Source of the DNA: a virus
Direction: 5' to 3' (one strand)
Length of the DNA stretch: 64,000 nucleotides
Virus record (IMG/VR): IMGVR_UViG_3300047666_001259
Coordinates: 41,909 to 105,908 of that record
In this document: one piece after another, positions 32,208 through 42,592 of the stretch
How positions within the stretch are numbered: the stretch's first letter is position 1
Layout: each line of letters starts with the position of its first letter
Position numbers and translations under genes: made by a program
The notes under the pieces: generated by a model
Told to the model about the DNA's origin: nothing
The model's database searches: none
Seen by the model: only the letters and a program-made list of their open reading frames with translations

Positions 32208-32417
32208 ATGAATGTAAAAGAAAAAACCTTCAAAATGGTGGACTGGAATGATATATTACCTATAGTTCCTGAACACAGTTATTTATGGGACGTTGGAAAT
32301 GATTCCTTCACCATTTACTTTATTAATGATCCCAGTGAAGAAGATGATCCTATCTCTAAATTTCTTATTGAGAAATATGATAATATTAGTGTGGGGGATT
32401 CAATATTAATAGGATAG
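32208..32417 (+). CDS. Hypothetical protein
   Basis: ORF track. Confidence 0.5.
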   Translation: MNVKEKTFKMVDWNDILPIVPEHSYLWDVGNDSFTIYFINDPSEEDDPISKFLIEKYDNISVGDSILIG

Positions 32418-32423
32418 AACAGA

Positions 32424-32858
32424 ATGACAAAGAAGAAAAAGAAAATAGTACAAATTGATCTTGACGGAGTTATGGTCGATTACATGGAGCAAAAGGAAAA
32501 CGGCTCTCTTCACCAAGATGAAAGAGGCTTCTTTTTGACAATGAGACCAATAGTTGGAGCTGTAGATGCTTATCACAGACTTCATTATAGTGAAGAATAT
32601 GAACCTTACATTCTTTCTACCGCACCTTGGAGCAACACTTGGTCTTGGATGGAAAAAAGAATCTGGGTCGAAACTTTTATTGGTGAGAAAGCTTTTAAGA
32701 AGCTCACTTTGACTCATAACAAAAACTTAGTCATAGGTGATTATTTAGTCGATGATAGACCTTTTAATGGTGCAGCTGAGTTTACGGGAGAATGGATTCA
32801 AATGGGTTCGGAGAAATTTCCAGACTGGGACGCAGTGTTAGAATATTTAGGAGTATGA
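32424..32858 (+). CDS. 5'(3')-deoxyribonucleotidase (NT5C, HAD family)
   Basis: DLDGVMVD, ILSTAPW, EKRIWV, K.L..GDYLVDDR. Confidence 0.88.
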   Translation: MTKKKKKIVQIDLDGVMVDYMEQKENGSLHQDERGFFLTMRPIVGAVDAYHRLHYSEEYEPYILSTAPWSNTWSWMEKRIWVETFIGEKAFKKLTLTHNKNLVIGDYLVDDRPFNGAAEFTGEWIQMGSEKFPDWDAVLEYLGV

Positions 32859-33079
32859 GATACTTTAAAAGGAAATTCAAAACCACTCAAGGAGTTAGGT
32901 TAGCTATCTTCCTGAAGAGACCTTATGATTGGGTTAGATTAAAGCTAGAAGGACAATCTATACTTTCTCACAAGTATAGTTATTCTCTCATTGGTTTTGG
33001 GGAGTATCAAGGAAGATATAAGATAGTAAATTTAATCATTACTCAAGAGATGATTGATGATATAAAAAAAACAATTTGA
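32855..33079 (+). CDS. Hypothetical protein
   Basis: ATGA overlap with the upstream gene. Confidence 0.45.
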   Translation: MRYFKRKFKTTQGVRLAIFLKRPYDWVRLKLEGQSILSHKYSYSLIGFGEYQGRYKIVNLIITQEMIDDIKKTI

Positions 33080-33162
33080 AGAATCATTTTTAAAACTTGT
33101 CCATATAAGAAACTTATCAGTCGAGCAGAGAAAGCTCTAGAATTATAATAAAACCAAAAACA

Positions 33163-33372
33163 ATGAAAGAATTTAATACCATAGGAACTATTACATTTGA
33201 TTTCAGTATCGATGTTGAAGCCTTAACGGAAGAAGAAGCTGAAGCAAAAGCGTTGGAGATAGTTAAGAATTATTACCACCTAAGCGTTACTGGTGCATAT
33301 CATCAAAAAGATGAAATAAAAATCAAACACCTAGACACAGGAGTTTCTCGAAATATTCAGACGGAATTTTAA
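33163..33372 (+). CDS. Hypothetical protein
   Basis: VEALTEEEA motif. Confidence 0.5.
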   Translation: MKEFNTIGTITFDFSIDVEALTEEEAEAKALEIVKNYYHLSVTGAYHQKDEIKIKHLDTGVSRNIQTEF

Positions 33373-33388
33373 CAGAACGGCTTTGATT

Positions 33389-33414
33389 TGCAACAAATAA
33401 TTTTTTCTTGCGTT
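33389..33414 (+). promoter_or_regulatory. ECF-type promoter TGCAAC-N16-CGTT (other copies at 33957, 44992, 50268, 53836, 58080, 62230 on +; 53205-53230 on -)
   Basis: 8 copies, spacer exactly 16 nt, each about 8-25 nt before an ATG. Confidence 0.8.
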
Positions 33415-33432
33415 AAATAAAAAAAATTTAAC

Positions 33433-33939
33433 ATGCAAATAAAACTAAAAAGTAATAGTTTAAAGAATCTTTCATTTATCTTTGATGCTCTTGGAACGTT
33501 AAATTTATCTTACGAAGATGAAGTAAGTATCAACCAGCATTTAAATTCAATAAAAATTGATATCCACCATCTTCAATATAAAGGAGAATTTGATGGTGAT
33601 AAATTTATAGATTTTATTGATCGAGTTAAGTTTGTTAATAATCTAGAAATCAAACACCCTAACTGCTTAGCTGAGAGGATATTTGCTTTAGATATATTAA
33701 AATCAAACGGTGTTGATTTATCTCAACCAAAAATAGGTGAATACGAGGTGGTTAAAAAAAAGTCGAGCGAGAGATTTTTTCAAAAATCCTCTGGTAATAT
33801 TAGTAGTGTTTTTAGTTTTGTAAACCTTGTTGGTGACAAATTAATTTTCAGTTCTATCACTATAAATAAGTTTAGTTCATTTGAGATAATAAGTAAAATT
33901 TTAATTGATAAGGTTGAAAATTATAAAACTCAAAACTAA
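33433..33939 (+). CDS. Hypothetical protein
   Basis: Preceded by TGCAAC-N16-CGTT. Confidence 0.5.
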   Translation: MQIKLKSNSLKNLSFIFDALGTLNLSYEDEVSINQHLNSIKIDIHHLQYKGEFDGDKFIDFIDRVKFVNNLEIKHPNCLAERIFALDILKSNGVDLSQPKIGEYEVVKKKSSERFFQKSSGNISSVFSFVNLVGDKLIFSSITINKFSSFEIISKILIDKVENYKTQN

Positions 33940-34007
33940 TTCTTTGCGAAACGATTTGCAACAAAACGATAAATAATACGTTAAAGAGGAAACAAACAAG
34001 TAAATAT

Positions 34008-35282
34008 ATGACTCACAAGGAGCTAACAAACATCGAAGGAAGGTATACGCAGTCAACTATTGATGACGATTTATATAAGCTGAACATGCAGTACGCAGCC
34101 TTTGTTCTTTTTCCAAGAGCTAAAGTTCAATATAAGTACATCCTTCGATCTGATGTTAAATTCCCAAAAGGATTCGGAGCCGTCCTGAGAGACATCATCC
34201 ACCAATATTCTGGACTTACTGCTCCAGAAGGTGCAGAAGAGTTTCTTAATAGAAGATGTGGGTATTTACCTCCTACTTTTATAAACTTCTTATTGAATTT
34301 CCGTTTCAACCCTTCTGAGGTTGGAATTATTCAACATAAAGATGGATCAATTGAAATTGATATCGAAGGATACTTTTTCTCAGCTATTAGATGGGAAGTA
34401 ACTTTGATGGCAACAATATCTGAGCTTTACTTCCTAATGACGGGAGAGGCTGATAAGATTGATATCGAAAGAATGAACAATTCTGGAGAAAAAGCAAGTC
34501 ATCTTAGATTGCATGCAATCAAGTTTGCTGAATTTGGAACTCGAAGAAGATTCTCTTATAAAAACCAACTTCATACAGTTAAAGAATTGAAGAGAACTGG
34601 TTGGGACAGTTTTATCGGAACATCTAATGTTCACATCGCCATGATGGAAGATTTAACTCCAATTGGAACTCAAGGTCATGAGTGGTTCATGTTTCACCTA
34701 GCCATGTATGGTGCTAGAATGGCAAATGTCATGGGAATGAGAAATTGGGCTGATGTCTTTAATGGAGACAACGGAATTATCCTTCCTGACACATTTACTA
34801 CTGATGAATTCTTAAAAGTATTTGACAAAAGAATGTCTAAGCTTTATGATGGATCAAGATGGGATTCTGGAAGCTATAAGGATTTCACCGACAAATTCGT
34901 TGAACATTACAAAAAATTCAAAATAGATCACACTTCTAAACAATATGTTTACAGTGATGGGATTAACTCTTTACAAAAGTGTTATGATATCGTAAGCTAC
35001 GGAAATAAAGTTCACGATATTCCTAGATCAAACTTACCTTTAGGTATCGGAACTTGGTTTACCAACGACTTTGAAGGAATCACTCCTTTGAATCAAGTAA
35101 TCAAAATGTGGGCAGCACAACCAATCGAAGACGGAAGGTGGATTGATGTTTGTAAAATTTCTGACTCTTTCGGTAAAGTTACTGGAGAGAAAGAAGAAGC
35201 GGACTTGACTATGAAGGTGCTTGGGGTTAATTTAGAAGACCTTCAGAAAAAGAGTGAAGAAGCAGAAGTGTCAGAAGTATAA
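34008..35282 (+). CDS. pncB: Nicotinate phosphoribosyltransferase
   Basis: DDDLYKLNMQ, EFGTRRRFS, GTSNV, PIGTQGHEW, DT, R.DSG, SDG, GIGT.FTND, KISD..GK. Confidence 0.92.
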   Translation: MTHKELTNIEGRYTQSTIDDDLYKLNMQYAAFVLFPRAKVQYKYILRSDVKFPKGFGAVLRDIIHQYSGLTAPEGAEEFLNRRCGYLPPTFINFLLNFRFNPSEVGIIQHKDGSIEIDIEGYFFSAIRWEVTLMATISELYFLMTGEADKIDIERMNNSGEKASHLRLHAIKFAEFGTRRRFSYKNQLHTVKELKRTGWDSFIGTSNVHIAMMEDLTPIGTQGHEWFMFHLAMYGARMANVMGMRNWADVFNGDNGIILPDTFTTDEFLKVFDKRMSKLYDGSRWDSGSYKDFTDKFVEHYKKFKIDHTSKQYVYSDGINSLQKCYDIVSYGNKVHDIPRSNLPLGIGTWFTNDFEGITPLNQVIKMWAAQPIEDGRWIDVCKISDSFGKVTGEKEEADLTMKVLGVNLEDLQKKSEEAEVSEV

Positions 35283-35692
35283 TGGAAAAAATGGGAAGCA
35301 AATTAACACATAGATTTACAGTATTTCCTCAAGACACCAACAATCTCCAAACTTTATTTGGAGGAAAATTGATGGCTGAGATGGATTTAGCAGCAGCAAC
35401 TCTTTGTAGAAAGCTTTTGATAACATCTGAAGCAGAAGGAGCGGTTACTGCATCTTTCTCTAGGATTGATTTTACAGCACCTGCTCATGTGGATGACTTA
35501 ATCGAAATCAAAGCTGAGTTAAAGATGATTGGAAAATCTTCATTGAGGATACGGTTGGTGGCTTCAAAAGAAGACCCAGACGGAAAGGTAATAAAAATTG
35601 GGAGTTCTAACGCAACTTTTGTATCTTTGAAAGAAGGGAAATCTTTTCCTCATGGAATTAACTGGAACAATGTATGTTCCGAATACTTTTAA
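35282..35692 (+). CDS. Hotdog-fold acyl-CoA thioesterase
   Basis: VFPQDTN...LFGGKLMAEMDLAA...IDF.AP...IGKSSL. Confidence 0.85.
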   Translation: MEKMGSKLTHRFTVFPQDTNNLQTLFGGKLMAEMDLAAATLCRKLLITSEAEGAVTASFSRIDFTAPAHVDDLIEIKAELKMIGKSSLRIRLVASKEDPDGKVIKIGSSNATFVSLKEGKSFPHGINWNNVCSEYF

Positions 35693-35695
35693 AAT

Positions 35696-36334
35696 ATGAT
35701 TACAATAGGTTTATATTTCGGATCATTTAACCCGCTCACGAGAGCGCACTACAAAATTGCAGAACATTCTTTGACTCATTTGGATGAAGTTTGGTTTGTG
35801 GTTTCTCCCGCCAATCCTGATAAGGAAGCAACTGGAGAGTTAGAAGATGCTAGTCATAGGCTTGAAATGGTTAAAAGAACAGTGGATTTCTATAATGAAA
35901 ACAAGAAATCTGTAAACCTATTTGCTTCTGATGTAGAGTTTCATCTTCCTAACCCATCTTGGACTGATTCTTCAATTAAGAAGATTAAAGAAGAGCTTCT
36001 TAGAGATCGAGGTTTGAATGAGGGTGAATATGATCTTCGAATCATTTGTGGTCGTGACACTCACTACAGAATTCAAACTTGGAAGAACAAAGATTACATT
36101 ATTGACAACTGTAGTTTCTTGGTTTATGACCGTGCTGGAGTTGATTCAGTAGAAGACGAAGCTCTTCATCTAAAGAGTTATTATGTTAATGATCTTGGCA
36201 TCCTTCCAATATCTTCTACAATAGTCCGAGAGACTATTCATAAAGGAGGAGAAATATTTAATCTCGTCCCAGATGTCGTTGACTGTTACATTAGAGAGAA
36301 CGGCTTGTATCCTTACAAAACTAAGAAACGATGA
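35696..36334 (+). CDS. nadD: Nicotinate-nucleotide adenylyltransferase
   Basis: YFGSFNPLTRAH, VWFVVSP.NP, I.G.D, WK, ISSTIVRE. Confidence 0.88.
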   Translation: MITIGLYFGSFNPLTRAHYKIAEHSLTHLDEVWFVVSPANPDKEATGELEDASHRLEMVKRTVDFYNENKKSVNLFASDVEFHLPNPSWTDSSIKKIKEELLRDRGLNEGEYDLRIICGRDTHYRIQTWKNKDYIIDNCSFLVYDRAGVDSVEDEALHLKSYYVNDLGILPISSTIVRETIHKGGEIFNLVPDVVDCYIRENGLYPYKTKKR

Positions 36335-36594
36335 TCCCAATAGATATAGAACATGAACTCTATTATGATCGTGGCAAGCCTGAGTTAAGAGAGAGAACTC
36401 GTAATAGATTAATTAAGATGAAAGAGGTTGGGATGGAAGCATACCATAACTATCAATTCGGTTATGAAGGTGTGATGTCAGGTCTTTGGATTGAAAGAGT
36501 TTGGGGCTTTAGTGAAGAGAGATGGAATAAATACATGAAATGGGCAACGGACTTAATTAAAGAGAAAACAGATGAAGCTACTAAGGTGTCCTAA
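36331..36594 (+). CDS. Hypothetical protein
   Basis: Coupled ORF. Confidence 0.5.
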   Translation: MIPIDIEHELYYDRGKPELRERTRNRLIKMKEVGMEAYHNYQFGYEGVMSGLWIERVWGFSEERWNKYMKWATDLIKEKTDEATKVS

Positions 36595-37930
36595 TTGTAA
36601 TGACGTTATCCGTTTAGTTCATATTGAATGGAGAACTTGTGAGTGTGGAGGTTGTGGAGGTCAATATAATAAAGACCTCATGAGCGCAACCATCGGAGGG
36701 AAATGCGATGTAATTGGGCTATCAAATTTATTCTTCAACGAAGACTTTAGAAAAAAGACTTGGGAAGAAAAAGTGGAATTCAGAAAAGAAATTAACCATT
36801 ACCCCGCTGAGATTTGGTTCGGAGAGATGCAAGGCGACAATCAGATCATTCGTATTGAAGACCCTAAAGGTGGGAGAATTGAAATGGATGTAGAGTTTGA
36901 CCCAGAGAGTGAAACTACTAAATCAATCATCACAGACAAAAGAAATTATTTTGTTAACCTTGCTGACGATACAAAGCCGAAAGAATTAATTATTCATAAT
37001 AAAATGGTTCCGTCTTTTAGAGATGCTGAAATGAGATTGGGAGGAAAGTCTTCCGCTGTTGAAGCCATAACAGATAGAACAAAAGAACAAAAGAACAATA
37101 ACATGGAGACAATCAATTACGAAGAAGTAGCAACCCATATTACCAAGTGGTTGAAAAATTACAGCGTAAAAGCTGGGGCTAAAGGATATGTTCTTGGTAT
37201 TTCAGGAGGAGTGGATTCAGCGGTAGTTTCTACTTTGTGTGCCAGAACTGGACTGCCTCTAACTTGTTTGGAAATGCCGATCCACCAAAACGAAGAACAT
37301 GACACTCGTGCTGCAAGACATATTGATTGGCTTGAAGAAAATTTTGATTACGTAACAAGAGAAAGAGTTGATTTGACAGCAACTTTCGATTTGTTCATGA
37401 ACTCAAACAGTATTATTCAAGGTGGGGACATGTCCGCTGTTCGGCTAGCAGGAGCCAACGCCAGAAGTAGACTTAGAATGGTTCAGCTTTACTTAATAGC
37501 TTCAATCAAGAATATGTTGGTCTGCGGTACGGGAAACAAGGTTGAAGATTTTGGTGTAGGATTCTATACTAAGTACGGTGATGGAGGAGTTGATGTAAGT
37601 CCAATTGCAGACCTTTTAAAGACAGAAGTTTGGGGATTGGCAAAACACCTTGGAATAAACGAAGAAATCGTTTCTGCCATACCTTCAGATGGTTTGTGGG
37701 GAGATACTAGATCAGATGAAGATCAGATTGGAGCCTCTTACCCAGAGCTTGAATGGGCAATGGCTTATATCGATAAAAATTACACTGACATTTCAATGGG
37801 GGTTCATCCTTACAATGATGTTACGGAAAGACAAATGGAAGTAATTGACATTTATAGAGGATTCAATTCTCGAAACCAACACAAGATGGTAGAGATTCCC
37901 GTTTGCGATGTTTCTAAATTTAGAAATTAA
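36572..37930 (+). CDS. nadE: NH3-dependent NAD+ synthetase with an N-terminal Zn-ribbon domain (NadE domain from about 37103)
   Basis: LGISGGVDSAV, NARSRLRM, GTGNKVE..VGFYTKYGDGG, PIADL.KTEV, PSDGLW, DEDQIG, NQHK. Confidence 0.92.
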   Translation: MKLLRCPNCNDVIRLVHIEWRTCECGGCGGQYNKDLMSATIGGKCDVIGLSNLFFNEDFRKKTWEEKVEFRKEINHYPAEIWFGEMQGDNQIIRIEDPKGGRIEMDVEFDPESETTKSIITDKRNYFVNLADDTKPKELIIHNKMVPSFRDAEMRLGGKSSAVEAITDRTKEQKNNNMETINYEEVATHITKWLKNYSVKAGAKGYVLGISGGVDSAVVSTLCARTGLPLTCLEMPIHQNEEHDTRAARHIDWLEENFDYVTRERVDLTATFDLFMNSNSIIQGGDMSAVRLAGANARSRLRMVQLYLIASIKNMLVCGTGNKVEDFGVGFYTKYGDGGVDVSPIADLLKTEVWGLAKHLGINEEIVSAIPSDGLWGDTRSDEDQIGASYPELEWAMAYIDKNYTDISMGVHPYNDVTERQMEVIDIYRGFNSRNQHKMVEIPVCDVSKFRN

Positions 37931-37948
37931 TAACATTTAAATCGAATT

Positions 37949-38260
37949 ATGAAAAAAGAAAATTTAATAGAACAATATAAAGAAATATCGAAAACATATT
38001 CATCTTTTGAAGATTGTTATAATCTTGTAACAGAAACTAATAATGTAGAAATATGTAAATTTTGTTTAGATTCTGATGGTATTTGGAAAAGACTTGAATT
38101 ACAATGGATGTTGGAATTTTTTCAAACCAACGAAGAATATGAAAAATGTGAAGTTTTGAAAAAATTAATAGAAGAACATTTTATTGCTGATGAATATAAA
38201 CAAAATGAGTTGAATAGTAAATTAGATGAATATGTTTCTTATATAAATAACGGTAGTTAG
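37949..38260 (+). CDS. Hypothetical protein, UVR-like motif
   Basis: LEFFQTNEEYEKCEVLK; very AT-rich; left flank of the cassette array. Confidence 0.55.
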   Translation: MKKENLIEQYKEISKTYSSFEDCYNLVTETNNVEICKFCLDSDGIWKRLELQWMLEFFQTNEEYEKCEVLKKLIEEHFIADEYKQNELNSKLDEYVSYINNGS

Positions 38261-38601
38261 TAATCCTATATAAGAATAGTAATAAAGGACGTGGAACTGC
38301 CGCTAATGAAATAATGAGTGGTTATGCGTTGTATAATAACAACTGTGCTGAACCCACTTGGTTACTTACTGAGTTTAATTATTTAAAAGAAACAACAAAT
38401 ATTAAATTCAAAAAATACTTTGGATATAAATTAACTGAAGAAGAAAGCGTTGTGTTTTGCTATGAAAATGATTGATATAATGAGTGAGACACTAAGGAGT
38501 GCAAAGGGAGTGCCTAATGGCTCTTTTCGGTGTGCCGATGACGAATGTATGTTATCCCCCTCTCATTCATTATATCTTTTGTTATTGTGCGTTTTAATAC
38601 A

Positions 38602-38810
38602 CTCTAACGGTTTGTGTATGGGTATTTTTTGCCCGATTTAATAATAACTAAAATTTAATAAAATGACTGAGGAAATTAAGCAATTACTGATTGACTGTGC
38701 AAACTTTATCCAACCGTATGATGATGGAGGAAACGAAGCTGAAAGGTTAATGATAAGACTTGATGAAGCACTAAAGCAAGGGTAATAATTACCTATACAC
38801 GTTGTTGTAT
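38602..38810 (+). repeat. attC-like site A (209 bp, loop carries a 40-codon ORF)
   Basis: CTCTAAC 38602-08; arms 38614-34 / 38780-800; GTTGTAT 38804-10. Confidence 0.8.
38663..38785 (+). CDS. 40-aa ORF inside an attC-like loop (possibly truncated)
   Basis: MTEEIKQLLIDCANFIQPYDDGGNEAERLMIRLDEALKQG*; A-rich leader. Confidence 0.5.
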   Translation: MTEEIKQLLIDCANFIQPYDDGGNEAERLMIRLDEALKQG

Positions 38811-38897
38811 GTCTTTTTTAATTGCATACAATATGTTGTATGTGCCGTTATGAGGCACGAGCAATGAATTTTAAACCTTGTTAGGCACTTTACGATA

Positions 38898-39089
38898 ATG
38901 GATAAGATGGAATCATTCACGTACAAAGGCTTCAAGGTAGACCCAACTTGTTATAACTATGGTTTTGAATGTATAGTTCAAGACGAAGCACCAAAGCTAT
39001 TTGGTATGTCTATAAATGGCATCAAGTTAGAGATTGACGAATGGATTAAAAAAGAAAAAAGGGAAGGGGAAAACTTAGAGTACCTATAA
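38898..39089 (+). CDS. Cassette ORF, hypothetical
   Basis: Follows GTTAGGCAC at 38880; ends in a degenerate complement TAGAGTACCTATA. Confidence 0.55.
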   Translation: MDKMESFTYKGFKVDPTCYNYGFECIVQDEAPKLFGMSINGIKLEIDEWIKKEKREGENLEYL

Positions 39090-39106
39090 AATTAAAGACA
39101 AATAAA

Positions 39107-39412
39107 ATGAACGAATCAAAAGAAATGATGGGGGAGCAATGTTTAACCGAAAAACAAACATTAAAAACCTCTTTAGAAAAATTAAACCAAAGAAACTATG
39201 AACTGAATGATATTGCGTCATTAAGTTCTCTATTAGTAGAAAAATTCTTTAACCCTAATAACGAGCCTAGAGATAATCAAGGTTCTGATAGAGAAAAAGA
39301 AAGACAGCCTGATAATATAGTTGAAGTTTTTGACGAGGTATCTAAAAAGCTTGGTAATAACATAAACACTATTGGGAGCAATTTGCAAAGAATATTGGCA
39401 ATAATGGAATAA
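39107..39412 (+). CDS. Cassette-region ORF, hypothetical coiled coil
   Basis: ORF track. Confidence 0.55.
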   Translation: MNESKEMMGEQCLTEKQTLKTSLEKLNQRNYELNDIASLSSLLVEKFFNPNNEPRDNQGSDREKERQPDNIVEVFDEVSKKLGNNINTIGSNLQRILAIME

Positions 39413-39481
39413 CCAACTTGTGAGCGTGGGCTTTTTCTTATTAGCAGAATGTTTGATTTGAAACTGAATTTAGCCCATGAC

Positions 39482-39575
39482 TTACAACGTTTAGGCTAAG
39501 GTTAGTAGCCTTTAATACTAACCATTAAATTATAACAAGACCTATTGAGGCTATTAATTTTAGCCATTGTTAGGC
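39482..39575 (+). repeat. attC-like site B (94 bp)
   Basis: TTACAAC; 17-bp stem 39494-510 / 39549-565 (3 G-T pairs); GTTAGGC. Confidence 0.85.
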
Positions 39576-39585
39576 ATAGTTTATT

Positions 39586-39789
39586 ATGGAAGCAAGAGAA
39601 TTTTACGACAAAAGAATTAACGAAGAACCGACTATTGGAAGCGTACAGTTAATGGAAGAATATGCAAAACATATTATTGAAATTAACTTTTGTGATGGCT
39701 CTCCTATTGAATTTAACAAACTATCGGTTGAGCAACTAAAAACAATTCACAAAAATATAAATAAGTGTGTCGATTGGGTTAACTCCTAA
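39586..39789 (+). CDS. Cassette ORF, hypothetical
   Basis: Between GTTAGGCATAGTT and AATTGTGCCTAAC; LMEEYAK motif. Confidence 0.6.
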   Translation: MEAREFYDKRINEEPTIGSVQLMEEYAKHIIEINFCDGSPIEFNKLSVEQLKTIHKNINKCVDWVNS

Positions 39790-39793
39790 TTGT

Positions 39794-39924
39794 GCCTAAC
39801 GGAATTGTATAAGGTTTCGTTACGTAGATTAAATAATAAATTAACAAATAAAAACTGAATTGTGATTAAGCAAGAAAATAATAAACAAACAGAAATTAGT
39901 AATGAACTTTATACGGTGTTATGC
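39794..39924 (+). repeat. attC-like site C (131 bp)
   Basis: GCCTAAC; arms 39807-23 / 39899-914 with one bulged T; GTTATGC. Confidence 0.85.
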
Positions 39925-40200
39925 CCCGTTAATTTGTTTAGGTACTTCCTTCGCAAGCAATACAAAGACGTTGAAATTAGTAACGAAGAATGCGATGAAT
40001 TAAACACAGACTTTCACAAACACTTAACAAGCCTAAAGTTAAGCGAAAAGCAAAAGGAAAACATAATGCCTAAAAGTGAAATAGATGTAATAATGAACTC
40101 TGAACACCCATTAAGAATGGATGGATTTAGCCCTGCTTATGTTTTTCATTTTGGTGAATATATAAAAAGTAGAGCAGTCGCATTGGCTAATGGGGCATAG
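39862..40200 (+). CDS. Cassette ORF starting inside the site C loop
   Basis: GTG start in the loop; reads through GTTATGC (ELYTVLCPV); TAG stop lies in the next site's left box. Confidence 0.6.
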   Translation: MIKQENNKQTEISNELYTVLCPVNLFRYFLRKQYKDVEISNEECDELNTDFHKHLTSLKLSEKQKENIMPKSEIDVIMNSEHPLRMDGFSPAYVFHFGEYIKSRAVALANGA

Positions 40201-40205
40201 CTGTT

Positions 40206-40394
40206 GTTATCGGCAGTTTAATTGAAAAATATCAAAAAGTTCGCAATAAAAATCAGGAGCAATTTATGACTCAATTTGGAAATGAATATTCTATATCAAA
40301 CGCACTTTTATTGGAAGAAAGAGATTGTTGCGACAGATTTATAGAAGATTTGAAAAAACTGCCGATAACGGCTGATGATAAACAATCGTTTTAA
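40206..40394 (+). pseudogene. Headless cassette ORF (62 codons) after a collapsed site
   Basis: VIGSLIEKYQKVRN...LKKLPITADDKQSF* open from the GTT; upstream hairpin reduced to GCATAGC-tgtt-GTTATCG. Confidence 0.5.
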
Positions 40395-40416
40395 TGTTGT
40401 TTATCATTTGTTATGT
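40363..40416 (+). repeat. attC-like site E (54 bp, minimal)
   Basis: CGATAAC-ggctg-ATGATAAACAA-tcgttttaatg-TTGTTTATCAT-tt-GTTATGT. Confidence 0.85.
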
Positions 40417-40525
40417 GTAGGTGTGGTTAATTAAGGTAGAATGTTTAATCGGAGAACTGAACAAAAATTTTAAAAGAAAAAGAAGGGTTGATTTTAAAAT
40501 TTGAATATTTATATATAAACATATT

Positions 40526-41044
40526 ATGAGTGAAGATATGAGAAAAATGATTGATAAAGCTAAGAACTTTAATCAGTTTTTAAATGAAAACGAAAATTTA
40601 ATGAACCAAATATTAGATAAAATTAGTTCTAATGGTATAACATCATTAAATACTGGTGAATTAAAATATTTGAAACAATATTCTTCTGGACAAATAAATC
40701 CAGATTTAGAAAAAGCACTTCAAGTTGAAAGTGGTTTTGTTTTTGTTTCAAAAAATATACCACTGTTAAGATTTGAATATAATTTCACCGAAGAATCAGA
40801 TGAAGAATATCAAAAAATGCTACACAAAGGAACCGTTTATATTGACGGATTAGAATTTGATGGAGATATTTATTGTGATGAAAATGGAAAATATGAAGCA
40901 TTCGATTTTCACACATATCAATCCAATGATGATGGCACAACTGACCAAATAGAAGATTTAGCTTACTATGATGATGAGTTAGATGGTAAGATAGAAAAAT
41001 TCTTTAAAAATGAAGTTTCTCCTTACTTAACCTATTCATTTTAA
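40526..41044 (+). CDS. Cassette-borne late-type protein
   Basis: Own TATTTAT at 40506; N-terminus ...NFNQFLNENE; ILDKISSNGITSLN.GE..YL. Confidence 0.65.
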   Translation: MSEDMRKMIDKAKNFNQFLNENENLMNQILDKISSNGITSLNTGELKYLKQYSSGQINPDLEKALQVESGFVFVSKNIPLLRFEYNFTEESDEEYQKMLHKGTVYIDGLEFDGDIYCDENGKYEAFDFHTYQSNDDGTTDQIEDLAYYDDELDGKIEKFFKNEVSPYLTYSF

Positions 41045-41093
41045 AAAGTTGGCGGGATTTTTCTTTTAAAATTTTCAACCGAAATGTTGATTA

Positions 41094-41133
41094 GAACGAT
41101 AAACGGAACGATAAACGGAACGATAAACGGAAC
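41094..41133 (+). repeat. 12-bp tandem repeat (GAACGATAAACG x3.3)
   Basis: Directly visible. Confidence 0.9.
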
Positions 41134-41139
41134 ACTTAC

Positions 41140-41236
41140 ACATAACGTTAAGTATATGGTTTTGTAAGCCATAGCAGAAATTTACAAATTAAAAACGAAT
41201 ATTAATTAGGCTTATAAACTATATACATTGTTGTGT
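41140..41236 (+). repeat. attC-like site F (97 bp)
   Basis: ACATAAC; arms 41152-70 / 41209-26 with one bulged T; GTTGTGT. Confidence 0.85.
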
Positions 41237-41270
41237 GTAATACGGGATTTAAGCCACAAACTTTATAAAA

Positions 41271-41453
41271 ATGCAAAGAAAGATAAATTGCAAACACAAC
41301 AACATGGGTGCTTGGTGTACCAACAAGGATATAAAACGCTCATTGTTTGGTATAGGTGCAAGATGTTGTACTGAATTTAATGACAAAAAATGTGATTTAA
41401 AAGAAATTAGAACAAGGAAAGGCAAGCCGCCACCAAGACCAACGAAAGCGTAG
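41271..41453 (+). CDS. Cassette ORF, small Cys-rich protein
   Basis: Between GTTGTGTGTAATAC and GTATTACACACAAT. Confidence 0.6.
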   Translation: MQRKINCKHNNMGAWCTNKDIKRSLFGIGARCCTEFNDKKCDLKEIRTRKGKPPPRPTKA

Positions 41454-41459
41454 TATTAC

Positions 41460-41684
41460 ACACAATGTTATGGATATGGATTGATTTTTAACGGATAAAT
41501 AAACACAGAATTATGAATATAGACGAAGAAAATAAAGCAAAAGAATTTTACATTAAGAGTGCTATAAATGGCATTCATACACCACGAACTAATATGGTTG
41601 AGATAAACTATTTAGATATGCTAAAGCTAATGCACTCTTACAGCCAAGAGGTAGTTAAAAATTTATCTATATCTGGTGTTAAGA
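41460..41684 (+). repeat. attC-like site G (225 bp)
   Basis: ACACAAT; arms 41473-92 / 41654-73; GTTAAGA. Confidence 0.8.
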
Positions 41685-41851
41685 ACTGGGTGGCGGTTAA
41701 AGACTCTATGCCCGAAAATTGCGACCAAGTTTTTGTAAAGTATGAAAATGGCAAATATGGAATAAATGAATGGTGGAAAAGTGATGATTGCTGGAAATAC
41801 CAATTTGATAATATGATAGTAAAAGAATGGTGTAAGCCACCTTGTTCTTAA
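41513..41851 (+). CDS. Cassette ORF with a C-terminal DUF551-like domain, starting inside the site G loop
   Basis: WVAVKDSMPE...V...W...P.PP; stop is the TAA of TCTTAAC. Confidence 0.65.
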   Translation: MNIDEENKAKEFYIKSAINGIHTPRTNMVEINYLDMLKLMHSYSQEVVKNLSISGVKNWVAVKDSMPENCDQVFVKYENGKYGINEWWKSDDCWKYQFDNMIVKEWCKPPCS

Positions 41852-41915
41852 CGTCTCGTATATGGTGTCGGAATTTTATTTTTCTTAAAATTATGCATTA
41901 TATACTTTGTTACCA
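41846..41915 (+). repeat. attC-like site H (70 bp)
   Basis: TCTTAAC-gtctc-GTATATGGTG...CATTATATAC-ttt-GTTACCA. Confidence 0.8.
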
Positions 41916-41945
41916 ATAGTACGGATTTTAATAACTAAATTTAAT

Positions 41946-42227
41946 ATGAAAACAATAACTTCAATTATAGCACTAGCTAAGGCATTTTTTATATTGCTTG
42001 TTAGGCGTAGTGCTTCTTTACCGCAAGTCTTAATGACTAAAAATGATTTTGAATTAGTTTTAAACCACTATCTACTAAATTATTGGGATATAAAACATGA
42101 AAATATTGATGGATTTGAACATTTAACAATTCAAAATCATTTACCATTTTATAAAAAAAGGTTTGAAGAAATGAAAAAAGTAATTGATGAACGCAAGATT
42201 ATTCGTGTGATGGTGCATTACACCTAA
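41946..42227 (+). CDS. Cassette ORF reading through the half site at 42000
   Basis: ATG 41946; ILLVRRSAS spans GTTAGGC; stop is the TAA of ACCTAAC. Confidence 0.55.
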   Translation: MKTITSIIALAKAFFILLVRRSASLPQVLMTKNDFELVLNHYLLNYWDIKHENIDGFEHLTIQNHLPFYKKRFEEMKKVIDERKIIRVMVHYT

Positions 42228-42273
42228 CACTGGAATAGATTGCGTTTCAATGCAACTCTATGGAATGTTAAAG
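42222..42273 (+). repeat. attC-like site J (52 bp)
   Basis: ACCTAAC; ATAGATTGC-gtttcaat-GCAACTCTAT; GTTAAAG. Confidence 0.75.
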
Positions 42274-42307
42274 CACGTTTTAATGTGCTAAATTTTAAAT
42301 TCATAAA

Positions 42308-42592
42308 ATGAAAGATTTGAAACCAAATTTTAAATCAGTTAGAGAACTCTGTGAAGAGTTCGGAGTTCAGGTAGAGCTTTCTTTCGGGAAGAAATTTAGA
42401 GCTATCGTGAGCAATGATGAAGAAATTCATGTGTTACAAAACGGATGGGATAAAAATCTAATTGAAGAAATCTCAGCCTTATCTGCTGAGATGTGGAAAA
42501 GAGAAGAAAAAAGATATAAGGAGATTTCTGATAGGCTTAAAAACTTAGACCCTGAAATCTTTCCAGACAACTTATTTGAAGATAAAGAATAA
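42308..42592 (+). CDS. Hypothetical protein
   Basis: ORF track. Confidence 0.55.
   Translation: MKDLKPNFKSVRELCEEFGVQVELSFGKKFRAIVSNDEEIHVLQNGWDKNLIEEISALSAEMWKREEKRYKEISDRLKNLDPEIFPDNLFEDKE

Follow-up and report, generated by a model that had tools for sequence, protein, structure and literature searches.

Small accessory phage genes bounded by repeated stem-loops are known from the PeSL (promoter-early stem-loop) cassettes of T4-type phages, in which the stem-loops are direct repeats for homologous recombination and are thought to aid shuffling. To our knowledge, PeSLs lack a dedicated recombinase, an AAC/GTT core and co-varying unit ends. The locus described here resembles them in that small accessory genes lie between repeated stem-loops, and resembles the integrons (IntI, attI, attC), especially sedentary ones such as the VCR array of Vibrio cholerae, in being an array of promoter-poor small cassettes. 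For attC, efficient binding and cleavage of the bottom strand alone is the established rule (PMC3458562). Clusters of attC without integrase (CALINs), which like the present array are recombinase-less attC-type clusters between small phage genes, were identified in 17 cases in phages by Qi et al. (2023) using canonical attC models and tested with IntI1, one being located in a Bacteroidota phage, Polaribacter phage P12002L; the passages searched in that paper contain no mention of an Xer-type recombinase family, mirrored genes or a G.T code (PMC9892861). No published description of a mirrored phage cassette system was found in the literature.

The DNA under study (hereafter the window) is the whole stretch of 64,000 nucleotides from virus record IMGVR_UViG_3300047666_001259, a 106-kb phage fragment with two arrays, one at 38.2-42.3 kb of the window and the second 47 kb upstream of it. 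We consider it quite probable that both are recombinase-less arrays of an integron-like gene-cassette system of Bacteroidota-type phages, an estimate that covers the whole explanation, including the unit structure, the exchange at breakpoints and the mechanism on a folded coding strand, of which strand use and chemistry are inferred. The sites in the window take the form xxxAAC, 4-6 nt, stem-loop, 1-4 nt, GTTxxx, and lie between ORFs on the + strand. A covariance model, R1, was built from the sites of 40 relatives and trained on coding-strand sites. It detected five sites at E<=0.013, all on + (39477-39580, 39789-39929, 40358-40421, 41135-41241 and 41841-41920), and weaker + matches at 38455-38592, 38788-38848 and 42217-42278; no match below E 0.8 was obtained on the - strand of the window. 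In the second array, four more sites were detected at E<=0.03, all on +. The features of the 38.2-42.3 kb array are as follows.

38455..38592, + strand: decayed site (R1 16.8 bits, E=0.13); AAT (38467-38469) replaces AAC, followed by gatt, the stem, tttt and GTT 38581-38583
38474-38489/38561-38576, + strand: stem of this site, 16 bp (inverted repeat I4); pairs read by hand, with one G.T as in the initial annotation
38581..38610, + strand: ORF-less unit read from the sequence, GTTATTGTG, CGTTTTAAT loop, ACACTCTAAC
39417..39488, + strand: unit without ORF, its ends pairing as TTGTGAGCGTGGGCT / AGCCCATGACTTACAA (two G.T, an extra base in the right arm)
39477..39580, + strand: recombination-type site (R1 53.9 bits, E=2e-9; also found by the scanner); AAC 39486-39488, gttta, 19-bp stem with four G.T, att, GTT 39569-39571; right-hand box GTTAGGCATAGT
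39586..39789, + strand: cassette ORF of 67 aa between GTTAGGCATAGT (39569-39580) and ATTGTGCCTAAC (39789-39800), which form 10 Watson-Crick and 2 G.T pairs of 12
39789..39929, + strand: site of the 120-nt class, AAC 39798-39800, GTT 39918-39920; top R1 match in the window (63.5 bits, E=2e-11)
40190..40217, + strand: decayed junction without hairpin, read from the sequence (weak R1 match, 8.9 bits); ATGGGGCATAGC (AAC changed to AGC; pairing partner GTTATGCCCCGT, 39918-39929), then tgtt and GTTATCGGCAGT
40206..40369, + strand: cassette body with 42-aa ORF 40266-40394 (inverted repeat I14), flanked by GTTATCGGCAGTTT and AAACTGCCGATAAC, complementary at 14/14 positions
40358..40421, + strand: site with the family's generic short hairpin (ATGATAAACAAT, CGTTTTAAT loop, GTTGTTTATCAT), AAC 40367-40369, GTT 40410-40412; R1 36.8 bits on +, 12.3 on -
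40410..41146, + strand: cassette body with 172-aa ORF 40526-41044 (DUF6576-like N-terminus), flanked by GTTATGTGTAGG and CTTACACATAAC (11 Watson-Crick and 1 G.T)
41135..41241, + strand: site (R1 50.7 bits, E=1e-8); AAC 41144-41146, gttaa, GTATATGGTTT...AAACTATATAC, att, GTT 41230-41232
41230..41469, + strand: cassette body with 60-aa ORF 41271-41453, read from the sequence; boxes GTTGTGTGTAAT and ATTACACACAAT (41455-41466, AAC changed to AAT), then immediately GTT without hairpin
41678..41852, + strand: 17-nt inverted repeat I8, GTTAAGAACTGGGTGGC / GCCACCTTGTTCTTAAC
41841..41920, + strand: site (R1 21.6 bits, E=0.013); AAC 41850-41852, gtctc, GTATATGGTGT...GCATTATATAC stem with 3 G.T and a bulged T in the left arm, ttt, GTT 41909-41911
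42217..42292, + strand: last, weak site (R1 12.6 bits, E about 1); AAC 42226-42228, GTT 42267-42269, then a terminal hairpin, GTTAAAGCAC-GTTTTAAT-GTGCT, with no recombinase gene downstream

The sites of the family resemble those of integrons in having AAC/GTT outer boxes, an unpaired spacer and a long imperfect inner stem beside a variable loop, and their lengths fall into classes of about 45, 85 and 122 nt. Also shared with integrons are cassette borders within a conserved triplet, a right-hand junction box belonging to the neighbouring cassette, near-identical sites flanking unrelated ORFs, and divergence of arrays at the recombinase-proximal site. The family differs in that the outer boxes pair across 12 nt and that an invariant G.T wobble takes the place of extrahelical bases in the stems; the window also lacks any recombinase. 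On the coding strand, a mobile unit runs from C through a spacer of 4-6 nt, a structured hairpin, a spacer of 1-4 nt and GTT-N6-AGT to the leader; a small ORF and its trailer come next, and ATT-N6-AA closes the unit. Each unit carries two end boxes of 12 nt that are complementary to each other, so excision as a circle would be expected to restore a complete site, in which an asymmetric internal loop separates an outer stem of 12 bp from a long inner stem. A total of 174 out of 274 units pair at >=8/9 variable positions, while shuffled partners gave 22.7 on average. RNAalifold analysis of 40 sites yielded 25 pairs, 19 of them with compensatory changes, and a G.U at inner-stem pair 14 in 40/40. 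The RTATA/TATAY inner boxes pointed out in the initial annotation were found again as GTATAT/ATATAC at 41152, at 41858 and in the second array. Its view of the main stems as site hairpins failed for some of them, as the 39417-39488 stem pairs the two ends of an ORF-less unit; the bulged T it placed in left arms is present at 41850-41911, the irregularities elsewhere being a 2x1 loop at 41144-41232 and an extra right-arm base at 39416-39493 and 42226-42266.

Neither a PF00589 recombinase nor the recombinase-proximal motif was found anywhere in the record to which the window belongs, and thus the argument on polarity leans on relatives. Several junctions of the window are decayed (AAC to AAT or AGC, hairpins lost), which fits an array without recombinase supply in cis. 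Pattern scan and scanner (both pattern and stem scanners being our own) detected the site family in other phage contigs. It is present in more than 60 of these, as arrays of 3-19 sites that immediately precede, on the same strand, the gene of a 270-aa Xer-type tyrosine recombinase; the L088 array is followed after about 250 nt by a PF00589 recombinase. Relatives of the recombinase numbered 206, from which 80 loci were kept, and the position of sites was judged in those with upstream DNA. In nearly every such locus the sites are directly upstream on the recombinase strand, and almost never downstream. In relatives, the last element of the array, about 60-130 nt ahead of the recombinase, is a conserved TAAC|TAT.ATATA site, at which the arrays of otherwise identical phages part. 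The recombinase retains the full R-K-H-R-H-Y catalytic set. Its closest structural relatives by sequence are Xer recombinases (archaeal XerA, bacterial XerC/D), the best being Pyrococcus XerA 4a8e (E=3e-48, end-to-end alignment); however, Xer enzymes act in dimer resolution at one double-stranded dif site, whereas the phage-family enzyme adjoins arrays of dozens of structured sites.

Among 336 phage units, the ORFs are on the strand of site polarity in 294 and opposite in 6. As the ORFs are on the folding strand, each site precedes its gene, and the recombinase closes the gene row at its 3' end, co-directional with it on the gene strand; in this arrangement the phage arrays differ from integrons. 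The foldable strand runs 5' to 3' towards the recombinase, like the attC bottom strand. The geometry of sites relative to the recombinase is thus that of an ordinary integron, with both the cassette genes and the recombinase gene turned round, so that the inverted, non-canonical class proposed earlier holds for the genes but not for the geometry as seen from the recombinase. As far as can be judged from sequence alone, the data support phage cassettes that are integron-like but mirrored, with the hairpin in front of the gene and folding on the coding strand.

Bacterial chromosomes with homologous recombinases carry the same sites on the strand opposite to their genes: all 43 model matches (43/43) are on -, opposite to the recombinase strand, and in 37 of 38 units the ORFs are on +, opposite to site polarity. 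On the polarity strand G.T outnumber A.C by 72 to 34, a weaker asymmetry than in phages, and the strand difference in DNA energy is not significant (p=0.12).

The G-T wobbles had been described as present only on +, without A-C pairs. A strand-symmetric stem scan of 38200-42350 agreed (G.T 4, A.C 0), although the per-site counts were off by about one, and the site letters A-H could not be mapped onto coordinates. The window alone offers few sites. The second array gave G.T 2 and A.C 0, and the rest of the record outside the arrays 3 vs 7. The spacer asymmetry was likewise recovered, with 4-6 nt after AAC against 1-4 nt before GTT and a longer left spacer in 3/3 window sites. Folding of the own-record sites on both strands favoured + in 13/13 with RNA parameters (by 1.0 to 8.8 kcal/mol) and in 11/13 with DNA parameters (up to 4.9 kcal/mol; one tie, one reversed). 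The bias persists in the larger set: on the phage gene strand G.T number 524 vs A.C 79, the left spacer is longer in 378 of 406 sites, and the gene strand is more stable in 261 of 317 (DNA parameters; Wilcoxon p=7e-41). Taking phages and bacteria together, the asymmetry of wobbles and spacer lengths tracks the site and not the direction of genes.

The same wobbles on the sense strand could arise if the hairpins function at the RNA level in phage transcripts, for instance as terminators, stabilisers or sites of processing, with selection for G-U producing the coding-strand bias and the exchange being incidental. The mean energy gap is indeed larger with RNA than with DNA parameters (-4.2 vs -1.7 kcal/mol), and every site is intergenic or just ahead of a gene, some ORFs even beginning inside the loop. 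Contrary to such a role, the bacterial sites, which have the same spacer asymmetry, are antisense to genes, and polarity is therefore tied to the DNA site; in addition, the sites are linked to a tyrosine recombinase with breakpoints at TAAC, the ends of a unit co-vary with each other, a feature for which an intergenic terminator has no need, and the stems are followed by no T run but by 1-4 nt and GTT-N6-AGT, with no Rfam family matching the hairpins. This RNA (G-U) alternative, already raised in the initial annotation, is disfavoured and we hold it to be unlikely, while a second, RNA-level role in phages is not excluded.

Evidence for cassette exchange came from comparison between arrays. Window cassettes are 72-96% identical to parts of recombinase-linked arrays, with alignments beginning at TAAC: the matches start at 39486, 40365/6, 41143 and 41849, and in all four cases this is the (T)AAC of a site. 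Site 39477..39580 is 92% identical to L281 6029-6131 from AAC, site 41135..41241 is 95% identical to L281 6442-6575 from TAAC, site 41841..41920 matches L219/L222 at 79% from 41849, and the generic short hairpin of 40358..40421 occurs in dozens of other cassettes with alignments from 40365/6. The frames of 39586..39789 and 41230..41469 are present in L281 with unrelated ORFs, AAC being intact in the latter, and the leader and trailer of 40410..41146 are common to L206, L243, L209, L239 and others. Between relatives, L202 and L276 are 100% identical over the 315 nt from TAAC to TAACG within unrelated flanks, L255 and L262 share 422 nt at 97.6%, and for L204 and L243 the common stretch is 372 nt at 83%; nine locus pairs, 86-100% identical on the recombinase-proximal side, break 1-3 nt before the recombinase-proximal AAC. 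The comparisons thus show that phages exchange units with one another, the breakpoints lying within the conserved (A)TAAC(G) 5' of the hairpin and the conserved TAAC(G) setting the limit of crossover resolution.

In the arrays of relatives, matches of at least 90% that include the downstream gene start at the left AAC in 11 sites and at the right GTT in 1, and those with the upstream gene end at the left AAC in 7 and at the right GTT in 2, both exceptions involving the generic short hairpin common to many cassettes. Near-identical cassettes span from the left (T)AAC of a hairpin to the next (T)AAC, and the hairpin therefore moves with its downstream gene, as had been proposed. At 75-90% identity with the downstream body, right-GTT starts (39) approach left-AAC starts (53), and several relatives have the window leader from 40408 onward with a different hairpin, so that the linkage of hairpin and leader is not constant; this we attribute, without test, to diverged hairpins or homologous recombination in shared leaders.

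The opposite assignment would be an ordinary integron array of canonical polarity, in which the non-coding strand reacts with a cut at G|TT, the hairpin goes with the upstream gene and the wobble bias is chance. AAC...GTT sites read identically on both strands, the GTTAGGC/GCCTAAC boxes are like canonical core sites, complementary unit ends are predicted under both polarity models, and the right GTT is the start of some matches; against these stand the breakpoint counts at high identity, the recombinase at the 3' end of the gene row, the excess of G.T over A.C and the own-record model matches, all on +. Canonical polarity, already disfavoured on these grounds, is in our opinion highly improbable. 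Equally little credit is given to general homologous recombination between repeated hairpins or leaders without a site-specific enzyme, the recombinase serving dimer resolution, integration or the like, for although many cassettes share leaders, trailers and the generic hairpin at 85-98% identity, ORFs are exchanged inside conserved frames exactly from start to stop codon, and G003, a contig that CheckV rates as 100% complete, has sites without any PF00589 gene, the breakpoints fall in a 5-nt conserved core between unrelated flanks instead of spreading along the shared stretches, the structure is kept through compensatory changes and an invariant wobble, and the arrays lie strictly beside the recombinase on one side only.

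The assignment of the folding strand to the sense strand, with the hairpin belonging to the downstream gene, is thus supported by three independent lines, the breakpoints, the recombinase position and the bacterial relatives, in agreement with the reactive strand proposed at the outset; the exact cut and the use of single-stranded DNA are inferred. The recombinase would act on the folded coding strand as single-stranded DNA, with strand exchange at AA|C in the manner of IntI on the attC bottom strand, a mechanism that is plausible but unproven. The invariant G.T wobble, an A.C mismatch on the other strand, may mark the strand as the extrahelical bases of attC do, and new cassettes would enter beside the recombinase, which is the downstream end of the phage gene row. 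Unlike IntI, the enzyme of the relatives lacks the IntI-specific insertion of roughly 48 residues; this absence of the domain by which IntI holds folded attC counts against a single-stranded mechanism.

Some further details of the window array were noted. ORF 39862-40200 begins within the loop of site 39789..39929, and repeat 41678..41852 encloses just the C-terminal third of ORF 41513-41851. The ORF-less unit 39417..39488 is more stable on the + strand by 8.6 kcal/mol (RNA parameters). A GTT-N6-CGTTTTAAT-N6'-AAC hairpin, as at 38581..38610, adjoins the recombinase in L202, L218 and L225.

Between the ORFs of the window array (~38.2-42.3 kb), the sites follow the order xxxAAC, 4-6 nt, a stem-loop, 1-4 nt and GTTxxx, the stem base often being GTATAT/ATATAC. 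By a strand-symmetric scan, in which G.T and A.C pairs were counted alike, the + strand of region 38200-42350 gave four G.T and no A.C pairs, with the left spacer longer in 3/3 sites; the remainder of the record gave three versus seven. Fold energies of 13 sites of the same record were better for the + strand in 13/13 cases with RNA parameters and in 11/13 with DNA parameters. At a threshold of E ≤ 0.013, R1, a covariance model built from 40 coding-strand sites of relatives and then run on the window and the record, identified five sites in the window, each of them on the + strand. Folding of the coding strand with G.T but without A.C pairs, as proposed in the initial annotation, is thus real. 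The wobble counts differ from those given there by about one per site; some of its main stems pair both ends of one unit instead of forming a site hairpin; and the bulged T was reproducible at only some sites, single bulges being found in only a few window sites. One ORF start (window 39862) lies inside the loop of its own upstream hairpin (site 39798-39920), and ATG with an open frame is found within the loops of several relatives in an alignment of sites.

Relatives were found by a pattern scan for sites in phage contigs. A first hairpin scan with wide spacers was noisy, and most of the 118 pattern matches were chance AT-rich sequences, which were filtered by stem length. On the best relative contig, of 180 kb, ~250 nt separate the end of the array from a 270-aa tyrosine recombinase encoded downstream on the same strand. 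A total of 206 relatives of this recombinase were identified in IMG/VR and 80 loci were kept; nearly all of those with upstream DNA carry 3-19 sites directly upstream, on the recombinase strand, with almost none downstream of the recombinase or on the other strand. The coding strand of these phage arrays contains 524 G.T versus 79 A.C pairs, the longer spacer is the left one in 378 of the 406 sites, and the coding strand is the more stable at 261 of 317 sites (DNA parameters). Absence of strand bias in a larger set of sites, which would have refuted the initial annotation, was therefore not observed. RNAalifold analysis of a 40-site alignment detected compensatory changes at 19 of 25 pairs, and the consensus is a continuous 20-bp inner stem with G.U at pair 14 in 40/40 sites.

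The G.T excess, the coding-strand stability and the covariation are, taken alone, also readable as RNA structure, and an RNA (G-U) intermediate had been named as the alternative explanation. The deciding control was a set of bacterial arrays. Homologous recombinases (40-50% identity) were found in Flavobacterium, Arundinibacter, Desulfitobacterium and others, with the arrays downstream of the gene:

Loci L297 (Desulfitobacterium sp. Sab5 chromosome), L321, L336, L335, L285 and others, bacterial chromosomes: arrays downstream of and co-directional with the homologous Xer-type recombinase.

When the phage-trained R1 was applied to these arrays, 43/43 matches were on the strand opposite to the recombinase, and the ORFs were on the recombinase strand in 37/38 units, so that the canonical orientation of gene and site is met there. 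The bacterial gene strand has 72 A.C versus 34 G.T pairs, and in 65/72 sites its longer spacer is the right one. The bacterial sites are antisense to the genes, which opposes the RNA intermediate; the polarity is therefore a property of the DNA site rather than of a transcript. In both phages and bacteria the recombinase lies beyond the 3' end of the foldable strand, an orientation shared with the bottom strand of integron attC, and the site geometry is canonical. It is the genes that are mirrored in phages, those of the cassettes and that of the recombinase alike. Of the 'inverted, non-canonical' class inferred earlier, the mirrored genes stand, but the site geometry is not inverted relative to the recombinase. 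The bacterial arrays, with cassettes of 0.6-2 kb, look like unrecognised chromosomal integron analogues, one of them in a Firmicute.

The gene that each hairpin accompanies was identified by pairwise comparison of all units of the relatives' arrays, which is informative where the gene body is common and the neighbours are not. Homology then extends from the left (T)AAC of the hairpin ahead of the gene to the (T)AAC(G) of the site that follows, as between loci L202 and L276 (315 nt common, 100%, with unrelated flanks), L255 and L262 (422 nt at 97.6%), and L204 and L243 (372 nt at 83%). When breakpoints were counted as distinct sites at an identity of at least 90%, matches including the downstream body started at the left AAC in 11 cases and at the right GTT in one, and matches including the upstream body ended at the left AAC in seven and at the right GTT in two. 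Both of these end exceptions pass through the generic short hairpin common to many cassettes, a recurrent short stem-loop as at window 40358-40421. Breakpoints at lower identity were less clean (left AAC 53, right GTT 39, inside the hairpin 14). The inference of the initial annotation, in which the hairpin is inherited together with the downstream gene, exchange is at the left AAC and the coding strand folds, is supported, the exact cut being inferred. Cassettes of the window matched the relatives' arrays at 72-96% identity; the alignments start at 39486, 40365/6, 41143 and 41849, and all of these positions coincide with the (T)AAC of a site. In some relatives the window's leader (40408 onwards) is preceded by another hairpin, and thus hairpin and leader are not inseparable. 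As in integrons, the borders fall within a conserved triplet, here at (A)TAAC(G), and the site is passed on with one of the neighbouring genes. The integron arrangement in which the gene is top-strand, attC follows it on its 3' side and the recombining strand is antisense does not hold for the phage arrays, where ORFs were on the polarity strand in 294 and on the opposite strand in six among 336 units.

Two window segments, 39486-39588 and 41143-41277, are 92-95% identical to L281:6029-6131 and L281:6442-6575 (L281, a locus of a relative) over hairpin, end boxes and leader to the ATG. In the same pairs the trailer is identical from the stop codon (TAATTGTGCCTAAC), and the ORFs between are unrelated and of unequal length. 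VCR cassettes likewise have conserved frames around swapped ORFs, and such frames may bear on how cassettes are made.

An additional feature, unreported in the initial annotation, is that the 12-nt box opening with GTT ahead of an ORF is complementary to the 12-nt box closing with AAC behind that ORF. Complementary end boxes in the window are at 40206/40369 (14/14), 40410/41146, 39569/39800 and 39918/40201. A scan for GTT/AAC inverted pairs (10/12), together with a permissive version, gave mostly background and was replaced by a partner-shuffling test: among the relatives, 174 of 274 units pair at no fewer than eight of nine variable positions, versus a mean of 22.7 for shuffled partners. Position 11 of the end box is G.T in 196/274 units, and pairing between the two boxes at a single junction does not exceed chance. 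The complementarity within units is the signature of units excised and joined as circles; complementary unit ends are predicted by both polarity models.

At the recombinase-proximal end, the last element in arrays of the relatives is a conserved TAAC and then TAT.ATATA, located ~60-130 nt ahead of the start of the recombinase gene. In nine pairs of loci with recombinase regions 86-100% identical, homology was lost 1-3 nt before the recombinase-proximal AAC. The TAAC|TAT.ATATA site, at which otherwise identical phages diverge, thus appears to behave like attI, and the newest cassette would be the one nearest to the recombinase. A GTT-N6-CGTTTTAAT hairpin was also considered as the conserved proximal element and was rejected, being present in only 3/69 loci.

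The source is a 105.9-kb IMG/VR virus record with a CheckV completeness of 31%, of which the window covers bases 41909-105908, and the window is therefore part of a large phage. When the phage collection was searched with the array at the DNA level, only four short matches were obtained, to Cellulophaga and Maribacter phages. The array consists of successive short + strand ORFs, for which Pfam and PHROG searches gave hardly any family match, and is located directly downstream of an NAD-salvage gene cluster. NadE was unsuitable as a synteny anchor, because the contig of the closest relative stops at the gene and the other relatives are only ~50% identical. The cluster and a second array of the same kind are as follows:

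Window 34008-37930: NAD-salvage cluster (NAPRTase, 4HBT thioesterase, cytidylyltransferase-like (NMNAT-type) gene, NAD synthase), adjoining the array on its upstream side.
G000:C1 ~32380-34700 (the window's own record; window coordinates ~-9530 to -7200, outside the window), + strand: second array, identified by R1.
33299-33438 (57.9 bits), 32940-33010, 33592-33660 and 32381-32439, + strand: R1 matches of the second array.

The second array, 47 kb upstream of the window array, has four R1 sites at E ≤ 0.03, all +, three junctions without a hairpin (AAC-N4-7-GTT), and a terminal hairpin, GTTAAAGTGCGTTTTTATGCAC, of the same kind as the end of the window array. The window lacks the TAAC|TAT.ATATA motif and the 106-kb record has no PF00589 tyrosine recombinase; several window junctions are decayed (AAT at 41464-41466 and 38467-38469, AGC at 40199-40201) and some hairpins are missing. 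The window array is therefore a CALIN-like remnant or satellite array. With at least five sites within 2.5 kb, though of a non-canonical type, it satisfies the CALIN criterion (at least two consecutive attC-type sites and no integrase in the vicinity). The 70.7-kb contig of locus L189 (G003), 100% complete by CheckV, has eight candidate + strand sites by our own scanner and no PF00589 match; recombinase-less arrays are therefore not merely a product of fragmentary assemblies.

The attC architecture (R'' ending in AAC, spacer, L'', variable loop, L', spacer and R' starting with GTT, with structure more conserved than sequence) is met by the sites. Extrahelical bases as a strand marker are not, many inner stems being without a non-wobble mismatch under ungapped pairing. 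Nor does the enzyme fit a canonical IntI: the relatives' recombinase retains the complete set of catalytic residues, resembles archaeal XerA most closely, and aligns to XerA unbroken and to IntI4 (2a3v; Vibrio integron integrase) in two pieces, 32 profile positions facing 80 IntI4 residues, so that ~48 residues are missing at the IntI-specific insertion. The record itself has no tyrosine recombinase, and a canonical IntI was rejected as the explanation. An intrinsic terminator (GC-rich hairpin with a U run, or a curated RNA family) is not indicated, the stems being AT-rich and followed after 1-4 nt by GTT-N6-AGT, and there was no Rfam match. IS200/IS605 and REP/RAYT elements, in which a Y1 transposase acts on subterminal hairpins, were dismissed, as no PF01797 (Y1/HUH transposase) match was found in the record and the relatives' enzyme is a tyrosine recombinase.

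For recombination through a folded single strand, with replicative resolution, support is only indirect, from strand-specific wobbles and energies; that the DNA is used in single-stranded form, where exactly it is cut and what the G.T does are inferred. The reading that joins these features is put forward tentatively, with slightly less than an even chance of holding as a whole: a second single-strand cassette lineage, in which a minimal Xer-type enzyme without the IntI I2 domain would act on sites in which strand selection depends on a fixed G.T wobble (A.C mismatch on the opposite strand) in place of extrahelical bases. Phage-mirrored cassettes would carry the site 5' of the gene on the sense strand, where it would double as the gene's leader or start region; insertion of cassettes would take place next to the recombinase, at the end far from the promoter; and the frames of hairpin, end boxes, leader and trailer conserved around unrelated ORFs would represent snapshots of cassette making. 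Integron recombination is thought to need the IntI-specific domain and bulged bases in attC, and hundreds of cassettes here appear mobile without either. The system offers a natural experiment on how a tyrosine recombinase selects one folded DNA strand, and the mirrored layout shows that cassette polarity is separable from gene direction. Accessory genes of a phage can be kept in an array that is open to exchange and is transcribed by the phage itself, and a large exchangeable gene pool, phage and bacterial, has probably been missed by current integron finders. Identical frames around unrelated ORFs are relevant to the old question of cassette origin. Literature searches found nothing closer than Qi et al. 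2023 (PMC9892861), who reported three integrons and 17 CALINs in phages, detected with canonical attC models, and the IntegronFinder 2.0 preprint, in which integrons are nearly absent from Bacteroidetes. The searched passages of PMC9892861 name neither an Xer-type recombinase family nor a mirrored layout.

Several minor features of the boxes and loops were also observed. A 17-nt GTT.../...AAC inverted repeat at window 41678-41852 encloses only the C-terminal 58 codons of ORF 41513-41851, with a weak phrog_924 match there, and this ORF may have arisen by in-frame fusion of a cassette with another gene. The 172-aa cassette has a 12-nt unit repeated three times in tandem in its trailer, close ahead of the end box, at 41092-41132 (AACGATAAACGG at 41095-41130), and the relatives' matches end at 41109/41110, the first copy of the unit. 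The sequence TAGTATTAC (41452-41460) resembles the nonanucleotide of circular Rep-encoding ssDNA viruses; this likeness was regarded as a coincidence, the sequence being a plain ATT-N6 box. The loop CGTTTTAAT recurs at window 38581-38610, 42267-42292 and 40379-40399, and near the recombinase in loci L202, L218 and L225; it is closed either by GTT-N6/N6'-AAC, forming 'empty' units, or by the generic short hairpin, and resembles CGGATTTTAAT, the conserved leader after many GTT boxes.
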